Shown piece after piece: positions 2,809 through 11,869 of a stretch of DNA of 64,000 nucleotides. The DNA is taken from NCBI GenBank assembly GCA_964016885.1, contig OZ024762.1:11718001-11782000 (forward strand). The letters are read 5' to 3'. The stretch's first letter is position 1; each line of letters starts with the position of its first letter. Source of the DNA: Eledone cirrhosa. Lineage: Eukaryota. The notes beneath the pieces are model-generated. The model saw only the letters and a list, made by a program, of their open reading frames with translations. It was not told the origin of the DNA and did no database searches. The position numbers and the translations under genes are program-made.

Positions 2809-4854
2809 GCTACTAGAATCAATTCTGGCTTCCATGTCTGAGTTTTGTATATTTATATGACCCATCCCTTGAATTAAAGCACACACACACACGTGCGTTG
2901 AAGCTCTGTCAGTCCAGCGACGAGTATTCCCGTTTGTCCAAAAGAACAACCTAATCGTTAAATTAACATGCAAATGTACCCTTAACGAAATTCTCAGGAA
3001 GATTCAGCGAGACACAGTGTATGTCTGTCACCCTTTGAATTATAGGTACAACTCATTTTTTTTTATTTTCCCCGCTGAGTAGGACTGAAGCAACGTGAAA
3101 TAAAGTGTCTTGCTTAAGGGGACGATGTAATGTTGGGAATCAAACGCACACCCTTACAATTATGAGCCAAACAACCTAACCACTAAGCCACACGCTTACA
3201 CACACAGAGAGACAGAAATACACACACACACTCTTGACCAACTGCTGACTCATGTTCATCAAAAAGATTCAACATTCTTAAGACAAAGGAAGGAAGACTG
3301 CAGTCATAGTTATAAAATTATTTGAATACTGAAGAAGAAAAAATGAACTAACGCAACAGAAATTTTTTTAAATCAAAAATTTTAAATAAAAGCAATCAGA
3401 GATATGAAATTAAATAATAAATAAAAATAATTTGTTTCTTTCTTTATTTCAAAATTATAAAATTCAAATCGCTTCATTGTTAACATGTGTATGTTCAGGT
3501 CCCAAATAATAGGTGGGGAGGGTGGAAATTCGACAATTTTTCATGATTGACTCCCTGGATTTATTTTAAACATCAAAATTTCGCCCAGGATAGATGAGCA
3601 AATTTAATAAGGGGGGGGGGGGCATTATTCTGTACAGAGTTATTCCCCCTTATAAGATTTTTTTAAAAAAATTAGCAAGGTGTATAGCTATTGCTGGGTT
3701 GACGAGAATACTATGGTGAATAAAATGTTTTTTCTCTTCTGTTAAAGGTATTAATAATTAGCCACAAGATGGTGGACTGGCAGTAATCGGTAGAGCGTTG
3801 GACAACATACTTTATGGCATAGAACTACTGTTCCTTACACCAATGCAGTCTAATGTGTAAATCAGCAGTTAGACTAAAATACCATTTAAGGCATAACCAT
3901 AAAAAAATGATTGAACTGAGAAAATTGTTGAACCCTCATACGTGGATATACAACGAGAGAGTCCTTCATGTATGTATGTGTGTGTGAATATCTGTATGTA
4001 CATATGTAACGGGAAGTTTGTGAGTTCAGTTCTTACTGTAGTAGAAGAGTGAATGATGATTTGTATTGGTTGCAGATGGCCGTGACAGTTAACCAATGTG
4101 TATATCTGGAAAGCGAAAGTGTTTGATATCGTGGGTAAAGTGATTTCCCCCGATCATACTGCCAGTGTTATAGAAGAACGAACGATCCCATAACGGAAAC
4201 ACTTAGATTAACATTTGTTACAGTCAAAAGGCATGAACAACAAACAAGGAAAAACTGTGCGTGAGATATGTTTGGGTATTAGGAAGAAATCGTGTGTGCA
4301 GCGATACAAGGTAACTTGCCTTATAGAAGTGGCTGGCTGTTATTTTTTGTGGTTCTGCCCATGGGCAGACACGGGGTGTATTTTTGCCAAGGACTACATC
4401 TTACTAGTGGTTTGATGGGTAGACAAAAAATGCGTCTCCAGCCGGAGACCAGAGCAAAACTCTGCCATGTTTATCGTAGGAAAGCTCCCGTTCACCTTCA
4501 TTGAGAACTTGTTTTGTCTTCACCCTCAGACCACTGGCGTCACAAGGAGCTAACCTTTAAAAAAAATGACCATTAAATGACACCCGGGGGGGTCATGTGG
4601 ATAGGTTTCTCTTAATATATTTGAATTTCAACGAAGTCATAATTGCAGACACTTGATTGTTGATAAGGCACAGTTATTGATGTTTAATGATGATGGTACA
4701 CAAATACAGAACTACATACACACAGAGAAAGAGAGGTAGATAGAAAGAATTTAAATATGCCATGTAATTGTAGATAAGATAAACATTTAAACAATTTTAT
4801 TTCTTCTAACGATAACTACGAACCACCGCTTCAAATCTACCACCATGAACTTAT

Positions 4855-5786: not shown

Positions 5787-5930
5787 ATGTCAGGCTCGAG
5801 CGAAGAGGATGAAAGCCAGCTTCCCAGTGGAGCTGAATGTAAAAAGAGATGTGATGAGTTTGTCCAGTTAACCGGGACCGATTCTGCGCTTGCTATGTTT
5901 TATTTACAGAACTGTTCTTGGGATTTACAA
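5787..5930 (+). CDS. TDP2: Tyrosyl-DNA phosphodiesterase 2, coding exon 1 (UBA-like N-terminus)
   Basis: ATG at 5787 reads MSGSSEEDESQLPSGAECKKRCDEFVQLTGTDSALAMFYLQNCSWDLQ, then donor CAA|gtaagt (phase 0). Matches the TDP2 N-terminal UBA-like pattern. Not in the ORF track (<60 aa). Confidence 0.9.
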
Positions 5931-6119
5931 GTAAGTTAGTGACATATATTTATATCACTTTGCCCGTCATCCTTACGGGGACGATAAAATAAAGTACCAG
6001 TAATGTATTGGATATTTGTTGGCCTTGTGCCAAAAATAGAAACAATTATATATTTATATATATATATATATATATATTATTCAAAATATCAATAAATGGA
6101 TACATTCACATAATCAAAA

Positions 6120-6192
6120 TATGTTTTATTATATATATTTCGGAGGTACTGTGCTGTTTTTTTCAGTACGTCCTCATCAGATAAAATACATA
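6120..6192 (-). ncRNA. Minimal type I hammerhead ribozyme (Penelope-type)
   Basis: UUUUAU-CUGAUGA-GGAcGUACUG/CAGUACcUCC-GAAA-UAUAUA-UA-AUAAAA. Confidence 0.8.
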
Positions 6193-7079
6193 AATTGATG
6201 TATGACATACCTCAACTGTGCTGATGGTTCAATTCCAGTCTTGGCAGTATATATATATATATATATATATATATCCAAAATTAAATTAAGGGTGTCATAT
6301 CTATTATTGTGACATATTTTAAGACCACAGAAAAATTTCCGGTAAATTCCGTAAATGAAAAAAAATGTCAATTTTAAAATTAAATTAAAAGAAAGAAAAA
6401 TGATTTTATTATAAACATAATCGAGATCTACATTTCGAAATTGTATCTTTGTTCAAAATAATACAATTATTAAAAAATTCGTGAGGAAAAATCTAGTAGG
6501 GGACACTTTATATGTATGTTTTGCAGAGATATATTTTCGAATGTTTAGATTACGAGTAGGTTTATTATAATTTTTATTGATGTTGTTGCTGTTGCTGTTA
6601 TTTTCAGTCAAGGAAATTACTGTTGATATTGTTTACAAAATAAAATTCGAGAATCCGAAAAGCCATCGGTGAAGTTTGTTATTAAAATGCGAAAGGCTGT
6701 AGAGACCCACGTGTGTTGGTTATTTAACTGACCAGTGAATTTTGAATGACAAATACTTATACATGGTCGTTAGAATTTATTTGAAATCATGTTTTAGCTA
6801 ATCACAAAAGCACTGCTAATCATTATCACACGGGAATTTTATTTTAAACATTTTTCTTTTACTAATATATACATTTACATAAATCTTTCTGAATTCTCTC
6901 TCTCACACAAAAAAAAAAAGGTATGGTTAAGGGTTAAAAAGGAAAAAGTGTTCAAAGTCCGTAATAGGTTATGAAGAGTGTAAAGAATGAAAGTGGTCGG
7001 TTTGAGTGTAAAAAAAAAAAAGGCGGGGGATATAATTATAATAAATAAGTAGGTGTTTATTGTGTGTGTTGGTTGTAGT

Positions 7080-7358
7080 TAAATGTGTTTTCACGCTTAG
7101 AGTTGCTGAAGCTTTGAACAAACTGCCTGCATCAGTTGTTAGCTGCCGAGACACTGCATCCTTTAAAACCCTCATGCTTCCCGAAATTCGCCAAAACTAC
7201 ACCTGATGTACCCCTTCCATACACATGCACACATGTGTATATCATGACTCATGCACTGTTCACTTCCCTGACGTTTGTACATTACCCTATGTACTATACA
7301 TACACTTTGATGAGTTGTAGTGCACCTGAGCACTGTACACAATATTTTCATTATTATA
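7080..7358 (+). mobile_element. CR1/L2-like LINE 3' end
   Basis: FTLRVAEALNKLPASVVSCRDTASFK and an (ATT)n tail. Other copies near 45880-46290 (-), 51720-52096 and 55815-56290. Confidence 0.65.
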
Positions 7359-8033
7359 AAGAGATCAGGGTAGTGAGTGAAAGAGTTAATTCGTAAGATG
7401 ACACTACACAGGTGGTAAGAATGCCATCTTACTCCCTCCCCTATGTTCTACAGCGCATCTCTCTTTACCATCCTCCGGGGAAACACACCTTCTCCATTCT
7501 GTCCGCCGGGGCTGTGGGGAGGCCATCAATATGATTACTTAACCCTTTCGTTACCATATTCCTGTTCTATATACTATTTAACAGAGACGGTAAGTTACCA
7601 TCAAAGATGATAAAAAGCTGTGAATGCTATGTCTATCATTATCAAAACACACAATGTATTTACATTTTCTTTAATATTGTAGCATTGAAGGAATATATCT
7701 TTCATTGTATCATCCTTTGTAGTGTTACCGAGGCATGTGTAATGTTATTTATGTTTATATTTAAAACATTTGTTATGTTATTCTACTATTAACTATGACA
7801 CGTTTAAAATTCTTCAGCTATAAATAATAAAATAATTTTAAAAAAATAAAGTGACATTTTAGTTCTACAGGCAAGTTCAGCCACCCCACCCGCCGCGATG
7901 AAGGAATTTAACTATGTACGACATCCAAAAATCTTTGACCACTCCCTGTGACAGAAAAGAAAATTAAATTTTAGAATTGTTTTATATGATACTACTGCTA
8001 TGTTTTGATTCCATGCCGATATATGGACTGTAC

Positions 8034-8129
8034 CCCCCTTGATAAGTTCAGCTAGGTCCCTGCCGTCCTAACACTACTGGGTTAGTTCAGATCTAGCTGT
8101 CGAAACGGCTGGAGCCCAGCCGTCGGGGG
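8034..8129 (+). ncRNA. Type I hammerhead ribozyme, U3-A8 core variant (sense, TDP2 intron 1)
   Basis: CCCCC-UUGAUAA-G..CAGCUAG/CUAGCUG.C-GAAA-CGGCUGG agc CCAGCCG-UC-GGGGG. GUC cleavage site after 8124. Confidence 0.75.
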
Positions 8130-9096
8130 TCTCCCTGTATTAGTTTTGGAGGCAAGCCAACACTCGTAGAATTGCCACCAGTGATGGCGAGGCTGAGATG
8201 CTTGAATAACCAAGCACCCTCGCGGGCATCACCCGATGCCAGTTGAATATGTTATTATTGTTGAAACACATTTAGAACCACTAGCATTGTTCCCTAGTGC
8301 TACTCTCTTATTACCCTGGCCATTGCCACGTTTTATTTTACATTTGTTTAAATCCATTTACAGTAATTTTCTTTTATCATTATCAAACATGTATCCATAG
8401 TGCACCTGAGCACTGTACACAATAATTTCATTATTATTGTTATTATTATTGTGGCTGGATGGTTAGAGAATTGGATTCACAATCTTGAGGTTGTGAGTTC
8501 GATTCCTGGACCGGGCGATGCGTTATGTTCTTGAGCAAGACACTTTATTTCACGTTGCTCCTTCTACCTGGAGTTGCGACCGATAGATAGTACTAGCAAC
8601 TGGAAAGACCGACGGAAACATTGTTTCCTCGGTCCGATTTGACGAAAGTCGATCGATATATATATTATTATTTAAATTATGATGGATTGGCAGTATCGGT
8701 AGAGGGTCGGACTTCATGCTTTGCAACGTAGAGTTACGGCCTTTTAAAACAAAGACAGTGTCTTTCATTAGAAATATAGTAATGAGAGGGTTATCTGAAC
8801 CCATCATAATTTTATGTAAAAATGTTATGTGTGTATGTGGTGGGTTACTTGCTCATGTGTCTGCATGTATGATGTGTTACTCAGTCGTGTGTGTATGGTA
8901 GGCTGTTCAGTCATATATGTGTGTGTGTGGTGGGTTACTCAGCCATGTGTGTGATTGTGTATGGATGAAATACTCAGTCATATATGTATGTGTGTGTGGC
9001 AGTGTATTCAGTCATACATATGTGAGTATGTAGTGTGGCAACCTTATATGCGGCCAGCTAAACCTGCTTAAGTGTGAGCTTTTTTTCTTTCTTTCT

Positions 9097-10215
9097 TTAA
9101 CCCTTTACCGTTCACATTACTCTATATATACTATTATATTTTCACAGTAAACGCTTTACCTCACATATCTCACATAACATTTACATTACTCTATATATAT
9201 ACTATTATATTTTCACAGTAAAGGCTTTACCTCCCATAATATCTCGCATAACATTTACATTACTTTATATATACTGTTATATTTTCACAGTAAAGGCTTT
9301 ACCTCACATAACATCTCATAACATTTACATTACTCTATATAAACTATTATATTTTCACAGTAAAGGCTTTATCTCACATAATATCTCACATAACATTTAC
9401 ATTACTCTATATATACTATTATATTTTCACAGTAAAGGCTTTACCTCACATAATATCTCACATAACATTTACATTACTTTATATATACTGTTATATTTTC
9501 ACAGTAAAGGCTTTACCTCACATAACATCTCATAACATTTACATTACTCTATATAAACTATTATATTTTCACAGTAAAGGCTTTATCTCACATAATATCT
9601 CACATAACATTTACATTACTCTATATATACTATTATATTTTCACAGTAAAGGCTTTACCTCACATAATATCTCACATAACATTTACATTACTCTATATAT
9701 ACTATTATATTTTCACAGTAAAGGCTTTACCTCATATAACATTTACATTACTCTATATATACTATTATATTTTCACAGTAAAGGCTTTACCTCTCATTAC
9801 ATTTACATTACTCTATATATACTATTATATTTTTACAGTAAACGCTTTACCTCACATAATATCTCGCATAACATTTACATTACTCTATATATACTATTGG
9901 ATTTTCACAGTGAAGTCTTTACCTCACATAACATTTACATTACTCTATATGTACTATTATATTTTTACAGTAAAGACTTTACCTCATATAATATCTCGCA
10001 TAACATTTACCTTACTCTATATTTACTATTATATTTTCACGGTAAAGGCTTTACCTCACAATTATCTCACATAATATCAAATCTATAAGATTTTGATATT
10101 TATTTTAAGAATAATACCTTAACTTCAGTATGAACGGCTGGTTACAGCCAGTTTGAACAAAAACAGATGAGAGAATTCTGGCTGGATACGGCTGGTTTAA
10201 ATGCTAAAGGGTTAA
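9097..10215 (+). mobile_element. piggyBac-like MITE with expanded internal 72/60-bp tandem array
   Basis: TTAA-CCCTTT...AAATGCTAAAGGG-TTAA enclosing repeats of ttacattactctatatatactattatattttcacagtaaaggctttacctcacataatatctcacataacat. Confidence 0.85.
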
Positions 10216-10279
10216 TCAATGTAAAAAATTTTAACTCTTAAATGTTTTACTCTTAATGGTTTCATCTCTCTCTCTGCAG

Positions 10280-10443
10280 TGTGCAGTAAACTTTTATTTT
10301 GAAAAGAACGGAGGTGAGAAGCCAGAAGCAGACAAAACTACTACAAGAAAGTCACTGAAACAGACTCGAGACAGAAGCATTTCAGATTCTTCATGTAGTA
10401 AACCGAAAAAGCGGCAAGCTTCTTTGGAACCTCAAGGTTTGCT
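10280..10443 (+). CDS. TDP2: TDP2 coding exon 2
   Basis: Acceptor tctctgcag| then CAVNFYFEKNGG..., completing the UBA helix. Donor CT|gtaagt (phase 2) fits the phase of exon 3. Confidence 0.85.
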
Positions 10444-11191: not shown

Positions 11192-11226
<35 letters not shown>

Positions 11227-11236
11227 AACCAGTAAG

Positions 11237-11330
11237 ACCCCGACAGCTGAGCTCAAGCCGTTTCGACGGCTAATTCTGGACTAAATGAAAATTTATCCTG
11301 GTATTTAAATAGCCGATCTTCTCAAGGGGT
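11237..11330 (-). ncRNA. Type I hammerhead ribozyme, U3-A8 core variant (antisense, TDP2 intron 2)
   Basis: ACCCC-UUGAGAA-GA.CGGCUA/UAGCCGUC-GAAA-CGGCU..AGCUG-UC-GGGGU. Homologue of 8034-8129. Confidence 0.75.
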
Positions 11331-11869
11331 AATTCCATATATGGTCAAAGTGATTGTCAAAAATCAGTAGTAATTCTGTGGTTGCAAATTAGTAGGGGAG
11401 ATGGTGGCTAAACCTGCCAGTAGGAGAAAGAGGGGAGGGGGTGGAGTAGACCCAATCAAGCGTAGGTAGTGCCAGCTACAGCTGGGCATGAGGTCAAAGA
11501 AGATACAGGGGAGGGGGAGGGGGAGGAAGTCGGAACGGTAGGTAGAACAATGGGGGGTAGAGTATTGAGTACTTTGGTGCGTTATGGTCCACCTGGTTCC
11601 TTACCACATTTCCTTCGTTATATATATATATATATATATTAAGCAGTAATTCTTTGCTTTAACTTTAATCTGTTGTTTTAATAAATATATATATATATAT
11701 ATATAAACACACACATACACGCGCGCACGCACCTACATATATTTACTTATATATCTGTGTGGGTGTGTGGTAAACAAAACCTGGTTCATTAATTCAAACA
11801 GAAATACCTTGTGTTCGTATACAGGACTGAGTTACCTCCCCTGACATCATTTTCTGTCAGTGAGAGATA

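Follow-up and report, generated by a model that had tools for sequence, protein, structure and literature searches.

A predicted hammerhead ribozyme in TDP2 intron 1 of Eledone cirrhosa as the terminal-repeat motif of a Hydra-clade Penelope-like element with a variable 3-8 core pair

Why does an intron of the TDP2 gene carry a motif that looks like a self-cleaving ribozyme, and does the motif serve the gene? A first-pass annotation of the window, that is, the whole 64,000-nt stretch of Eledone cirrhosa DNA analysed here, had described a complete type I hammerhead with a rare U3-A8 core, lying in sense in TDP2 intron 1 and perhaps able to cut the pre-mRNA. The sense orientation within this gene and intron is supported from the sequence. 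Exon 1 (5787-5930, + strand) has a UBA_4 match of 1.7e-8, exon 2 lies at 10281-10443 on the same strand with an approximate end, and the last exon matches solved TDP2 structures (2.5e-21). Intron 1 spans 5931-10280 with GT..AG borders, the exon limits being read from sequence only.

The anatomy that had been proposed is found element by element, over 8039-8124 plus stem I, all on the + strand. By inspection, the 5' strand of stem I is a run of six C at 8033-8038, where four C are the norm in the element family described below. The core UUGAUAA at 8039-8045 reads U3 U4 G5 A6 U7 A8 A9. It is the majority core of its subfamily and contains a Watson-Crick 3-8 pair, U8039-A8044; U3-A8 is present in all 29 copies of that subfamily. 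According to fold prediction, stem II (8046-8101) consists of the base pair G10.1-C11.1 (G8046-C8101), a UU/U loop, a helix of 9-10 bp (8049-8058/8090-8099, including the strands CAGCUAG at 8049-8055 and CUAGCUG at 8093-8099) and a branched interior of 31 nt. GAAA at 8102-8105 gives G12 A13 A14 A15.1 and is unchanged in 10/10 subfamily majority lines. Stem III (8106-8123) has 7 bp, formed by CGGCUGG (8106-8112) and CCAGCCG (8116-8122), against 4-5 bp in the family, and leads into GUC at 8122-8124. Cleavage is predicted after C17, at 8124/8125, where hammerhead numbering agrees with the annotated cut. The 3' strand of stem I takes up 8125-8130, and the element stops there without its usual 17-nt end. 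The window copy has three helices around U4 G5 A6, A9, G12 A13 A14, A15.1-U16.1 and H17, with stem I open.

Is the predicted fold competent? Here the annotated features stand as sequences but less well as structures. The stem I strands CCCCC (8034-8038) and GGGGG (8125-8129) are present, but the C run is six long and ViennaRNA favours a slipped pairing of 8033-8037 with 8125-8129. The competent register of stem I has p 0.03, rising to 0.14-0.18 for an RNA that stops at 8135, and the competent fold lies 3.4 kcal/mol above the minimum. Stem I has four C and four G in 89/136 copies, and the 6/5 form is seen in 1/136, the window copy itself. The slipped fold weakens the case for activity without excluding it, since the model ignores tertiary contacts and the competent-fold score is equally low in 58/136 copies of the family. 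Stem II has the proposed G-C closing pair and a helix, but the UU/U loop isolates G8046-C8101 (p 0.09). The sequences of an extra CUAAC/GUUAG hairpin in its loop are also there, but the hairpin itself has a predicted p of 0.10. A stable stem III had been taken as a reason to expect cleavage as a monomer. The 7 bp exist, and the hairpin is the strongest of 13 copies folded (-12.9 vs -3.2 to -7.1 kcal/mol), but the changes that make it are mostly private to the window copy and stem I is slipped.

Could the motif be a chance resemblance to a hammerhead within a GC-rich repeat? Searching with the hammerhead models of Rfam, which had been suggested as a check, found no hammerhead match for the window motif at E<=10 and none in three other copies of the family at E<=1, as a chance resemblance would predict. 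The models probably miss the motif because of its long stem II; that a U3-A8 core escapes CUGANGA searches is correct as well. A type I descriptor that allows any Watson-Crick 3-8 pair gave two matches in 128 kb over both strands, at 8039 (+) and 11325 (-), and the same descriptor gave six matches in 40 shuffles of the window, none of them equally strong. The fold z-score of the motif is -2.51, with 3/200 shuffles folding equally well. Chance is further contradicted by the conservation among majority lines, by a position that agrees with published Hydra hammerheads and by the canonical hammerheads that metagenome relatives carry at the same place. We give coincidence a negligible probability.

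Where does the motif come from, then? It is the end of a 5'-truncated fragment (7859-8130, + strand) that comprises the last part of the 3' UTR and the hammerhead of a Hydra-clade Penelope-like element, from an old subfamily. Positions 7859 to about 8130 match other genomic copies with 82-89% identity over 264-287 nt. A search of the 3.0-Gb genome with 8020-8200 yielded 1,987 candidates, of which the 40 that were scored have 88-100% identity over the ribozyme part. The supposed rarity of a U3-A8 hammerhead is thus refuted for this genome, which has thousands of copies. The window copy is single and without ORF, and its end branch is 0.10, vs 0.003 for a young sister copy. TDP2 intron 2 holds another copy, young and in antisense (11195-11640, - strand, 97.5-100% identical to the full copy L102), which has a U3-A8 core with G7. 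On its 5' side it carries an inverted tail of 80 nt (11561-11640), a typical Penelope inversion. The window copy is abutted by a fragment of an unrelated old, high-copy repeat (8131-8240, - strand; 78-84% identity, 40 scored of 1,510 candidates), one frame of which may resemble the endonuclease region at the C-terminus of CRE/SLACS-type non-LTR elements. Contigs of one sample confirm the junction over 8090-8422 and are uninformative on ends.

What is the parent element? L102 is a full genomic copy, and the L102 family denotes the element family that includes the window copy. L102 has an RT-GIY-YIG ORF of 719 aa between two hammerheads, with C17 at 3389 and 6507, so that there is one motif per unit of 3,118 nt. 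It also bears an inverted copy, and the whole forms a pseudo-LTR tandem plus inverted arrangement. The ORF is intact and the terminal repeats are 99% identical, which indicates that the family has been active recently or is active now. Longer copies extend upstream through a 3' UTR of about 750 nt into the GIY-YIG endonuclease, and in L018, a copy of the window copy's own subfamily, the GIY-YIG domain likewise lies on the same strand, some 750 nt upstream.

In the part of Craig et al. 2021 that is covered here, the Hydra clade is defined by a change of DKG to DKT, a CxCX5C linker, a divergent RT4, the lack of CCHH, and (TA)n insertion. The L102 ORF shows SDKTG, CNCPDRSIC (the CxCX5C linker) and MGATDS (the divergent RT4), with one cysteine before YIG and no CCHH motif. 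Its likeness to published Hydra proteins was followed motif by motif, by eye, on the supplement alignment of PMC8557442. A (TA)n end lies within 40 nt of C17 in 81/154 copies, and a tail is found in 61. The ORF matches 2,054 database proteins, the best at 38-54%, and a Pfam search with it found no family. Judged by these protein marks and (TA)n ends, the L102 family is a Hydra-clade Penelope-like retroelement. At L012, L075 and L077, copies of the L102 family have as neighbours endonuclease fragments from different Hydra-type families (33-54% to L102); for other Hydra-type families no hammerhead was found after the endonuclease in one set of 5 regions and one of 4.

How does the family compare with known hammerhead-bearing elements? 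As far as PMC8557442 and its File S2 are covered, Hydra-clade hammerheads are, like those of the L102 family, of type I, in sense and near the 3' end, after an ORF with a C-terminal GIY-YIG. The elements also share the (TA)n insertion and the protein motifs, and the stem III of the published rows (3-4 bp plus A-U) is similar. The same rows have C3-G8 and a compact stem II, whereas the L102 family has four 3-8 states, a branched stem II of 54-56 nt and a longer palindromic loop 3. Among metagenome relatives, 5 of 8 loci (two distinct elements) have a compact C3-G8 hammerhead 3' of the ORF, and no hammerhead was found after the ORF in the other three. Together with the Hydra rows of File S2, these relatives make C3-G8 with a short stem II the likely norm of the clade. 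Hydra-1_Obim differs from the L102 family in hammerhead and in protein sequence and is a different family. Non-LTR retrozymes are more distant, being non-coding tandem repeats of about 300 nt with one hammerhead each, while the L102 unit has 3,118 nt and is coding.

Is the ribozyme conserved within the family? The first-pass annotation had made its case depend on homologues that keep the core and show covariation in the stems, and both are seen, the latter as compensation in stem II. Among 10 subfamily majority lines, one of which rests on a single copy, the lines differ at 0/10 fixed core columns, 1/8 columns of stem I, 1/8 of stem III and 0/6 of loop 3, and at 29/39 columns of distal stem II and 3/3 of positions 3, 7 and 8, a contrast that speaks for selection on the fold. 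The constancy of the 5' core is partly built in, as this part belonged to the search patterns. These did not extend to stem III, loop 3 or the stretch from G12 to C17, and G12, A13, A14, A15.1, U16.1 and C17 are constant all the same, while N7 varies. Compensatory changes between subfamilies occur in stem II at the alignment pairs 40-88, 45-83 and 46-82 (3/10 pairs), and stems I and III are nearly invariant with no double changes. In a set of 40 copies hand-picked from 147 distinct ones, 83.5% of the cells pair. Double-change cells number 44 vs 27.5 in shuffles (0/500 reach that number), mainly in stem II, with cell counts inflated by relatedness. The number of pairs with a double change is 5, not above shuffles (477/500 reach it), and the same holds for pair types; two of five whole-structure covariation measures fail to exceed those of shuffles. 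Stem III has 4-5 bp in 93/136 copies and 7 bp in 5/136, and a palindromic GAGCUC loop 3 is found in 109/136. The changes at 8110 and 8116 of the window create its 7-bp stem III and destroy the palindrome.

Does the same constancy hold for the 3-8 pair? The pair was counted with four exact 21-nt patterns, identical except at positions 3 and 8. The genome contains 4,584 matches with U3-A8, 1,545 with C3·A8, 61 with U3·G8 and 13 with C3-G8, and controls with reversed patterns gave 0. The counts are lower bounds, biased to young copies and including both ends of inverted insertions; the window copy itself is missed by these patterns. The Watson-Crick 3-8 pair that the annotation emphasized is thus kept in the window copy but not by the family, in which C3·A8 and U3·G8 form subfamilies. 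One small subfamily with a pattern of its own has U3·G8 in 31/37 copies. The most diverged group (10-11% from the majority line) has 13 C3-G8 and 15 U3·G8 among 38 members, most of which came from a C3-G8 query. A neutral pattern for this group and its U3-A8 neighbours gave 85 U-A, 8 U·G, 4 C-G and 3 C·A, as counted by hand in the first 100 of 266 matches. In L118-L147, which make up the C3-G8 portion of the oldest group, G10.1·U11.1 replaces G-C at the base of stem II.

Some simpler accounts of these states were dropped. Core covariation between U-A and C-G was given up after the 1,545 C3·A8 matches, and a fixed A8 with G8 as mere decay was given up because G8 subfamilies exist. Nine C3-G8 matches in the younger lineage do not stand as a subfamily, since A-to-G decay of C3·A8 copies, at about 0.6%, would account for them.

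In what order did the states arise? A DNA tree of the endonuclease, which is independent of the ribozyme, has 31 rows, three of them linked to their own ribozyme only by inverted adjacency. It places a ladder of C3 copies between the older and the youngest U3-A8 groups (100/99), and grouping these two together is rejected with a p-AU of 5e-66. A tree of the 3' UTR, built from 124 of 184 copies after masking of positions 3, 7 and 8, has the same ladder, and the corresponding test gave a p-AU of 0.005 on 99 rows, with duplicates and four chimeric or gappy rows dropped. A course of the 3-8 pair from U-A to C·A and again to U-A is therefore well supported by the sequences of both regions. The base of the tree was left unplaced despite three distant endonucleases as root, and the order among C3-G8, U3·G8 and the U3-A8 group of the window is suggested by divergence alone.

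Which of these states were known before? Natural U3-A8 has been in print since 2011: several natural hammerheads covary from C3-G8 to U3-A8, and U3-A8 is reported active (Perreault et al. 2011, PMC3088659). Those variants are compensated swaps, with no unpaired 3-8 families in the section covered. For a type III hammerhead that was screened in full for pairwise changes, the covered part of PMC9901934 gives the G-C swap as the only rescue of 3-8 changes, so that U3-A8 is not always neutral, though reported active in the former study. U3-A8 in Penelope elements has been in print since 2014, when minimal hammerheads of this kind, with about 1,300 hits, were described in Cercyon of Schistosoma mansoni (Cervera and De la Pena 2014, PMC4209133), and hammerheads in Hydra elements are in print too. 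In the parts of PMC4209133 covered, Cercyon shares with the L102 family the U3-A8 pair, mostly single, dispersed and truncated copies and a palindromic helix III region, but its hammerheads are without a real helix III and need dimers, while the 4-5 bp of the L102 family could close as a monomer; these parts contain no C3·A8 or U3·G8 families. Minimal dimer-only Penelope hammerheads have no helix III or one of 1-2 bp, shorter than that of the L102 family, and a palindromic loop 3, which is common to the L102 family and lost in the window copy. The L102 family is not described in the literature covered, including the covered parts of PMC6765202, PMC7229834, PMC3884650, PMC7151607 and bioRxiv 10.64898/2026.07.22.740005. 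Neither the long branched stem II nor whole subfamilies with a U3·G8 wobble or a C3·A8 mismatch were found in print. No paper on a C3-A8 hammerhead was found either; most subscription literature lay outside the search, so absence from print is not established.

There is a further question of concern: how often does the element cut its RNA? Among 73 distinct copies chosen by the 5'-core pattern alone, 66 pass C17, 7 stop earlier and 0 end at C17, and copies tend to end either 16-20 nt or about 97 nt beyond it. Since 66/73 copies span the site, the RNA that was copied had an intact junction, either uncut or re-ligated, and the predicted cleavage is probably either slow or undone by ligation. We prefer, with a probability of about 0.7, the reading that this hammerhead belongs to the terminal repeats of a Hydra-clade Penelope-like element, that it is likely a slow cutter whose RNA is re-ligated or uncut, and that the window copy has likely little effect on TDP2. 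In an active element, the slow ribozyme would free unit-length RNA from tandem transcripts, and such RNAs would be re-ligated, or would often stay uncut, before being copied back into DNA, so that the templates would be circular or read-through. A circle model has been proposed for Penelope hammerheads, which cleave weakly (PMC4209133, in the parts covered). Dimer formation through the palindromic loop 3 may aid cleavage, and an alternative hairpin over G12-A14 may damp it. A weak ribozyme would suit an element in which the cDNA has to extend across the cut site, and such a low demand on the cleavage rate may have left the 3-8 pair free to drift through U·G and C·A. Against a slow rate in the window copy, the covered parts of PMC4209133 describe a fungal Penelope hammerhead that has a large stem III and cleaves fast as a monomer, and by analogy with it and with active U3-A8 hammerheads the window copy might cut well.

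The alternative hairpin has p 0.21-0.72 in five C/Y copies and 0 in the three copies folded from the window's group; in the fold model, it is a possible built-in off state. In L042:1480-1615 and L107:4528-4658, stems II and III have as their 3' strands heptamers of almost the same sequence, which allows the helices to exchange partners and this hairpin to form.

Must the mismatched states be idle? It is conceivable that the lineage, as recorded in its thousands of dated copies, walked through C-G, U·G, U-A, C·A and back to U-A, with C3·A8 and U3·G8 as functional natural ribozymes that are supported by the long branched stem II or by palindromic loop pairing, and with weak cleavage tuned so that cDNA can pass the cut site; we advance this only tentatively. 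Another explanation is that the hammerhead fold was kept for a job other than cutting, such as binding of the RT-endonuclease, marking of the 3' end or RNA pairing through the palindrome, with negligible cleavage. A C3·A8 grade between U3-A8 groups and a subfamily that is mainly U3·G8 are what it would predict, and a core that tolerates C3·A8 in 1,545 or more copies may not cleave at all. Copy ends that are fixed past C17 and never at it, a hairpin that hides G12-A14 with p 0.49-0.72 in 4/5 C/Y copies folded, and the spread of Naiad elements without a hammerhead point the same way. However, a non-cutting job fits poorly with the constancy from G12 to C17, which N7 does not share, and with a youngest group that is back at U3-A8, and we consider it unlikely. 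On the preferred reading of a slowly cutting terminal-repeat hammerhead, the unusual part is that the family appears to have kept spreading while the core pair of its predicted ribozyme was mismatched. Do Penelope-like elements depend on cutting by their hammerheads? This open question becomes addressable here, for the family offers natural subfamilies with different 3-8 pairs, of known order and copy yield, for a side-by-side assay.

What does this mean for TDP2? The window copy could have been kept as a regulator that cuts the pre-mRNA in intron 1. It lies on the sense strand with an intact core, the changes at 8110 and 8116 give it a perfect 7-bp stem III, and that hairpin is the strongest among those folded. 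Against a regulatory role, it is one of thousands of copies, its core is equally intact in 108/136 sampled copies so that only stem III sets it apart, its extra C residues favour the slipped stem I, and there is no sign that it has changed more slowly than its neighbours. We regard such a role as very improbable. A special link of the motif to TDP2 is unsupported: the motif is a truncated retroelement tail, and as one of thousands of copies of a jumping gene it is likely a passenger whose association with the gene is incidental.

Ultraconserved intronic hammerheads of amniotes are named HH9 and HH10. Like the window copy, amniote ultraconserved hammerheads are of type I and intronic, but in the covered parts of PMC7229834 and PMC6765202 they are few and conserved across species, while the window copy belongs to a set of thousands. 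As a TDP2 regulator the motif is thus probably of no importance. What matters more broadly is that in one animal genome 6,203 or more motifs of hammerhead type escape searches with descriptors and Rfam, enough for testing whether sense-strand intronic copies are depleted.

The surroundings of the motif are repetitive in other ways too. An AT-rich unit of about 70 nt is repeated in long tandem arrays at 9090-10090 and 13240-14380, in TDP2 introns 1 and 3, and upstream of the gene the stretch 4075-4560 (+) looks, from an impression of its sequence, like a decayed fragment of a DNA transposase.
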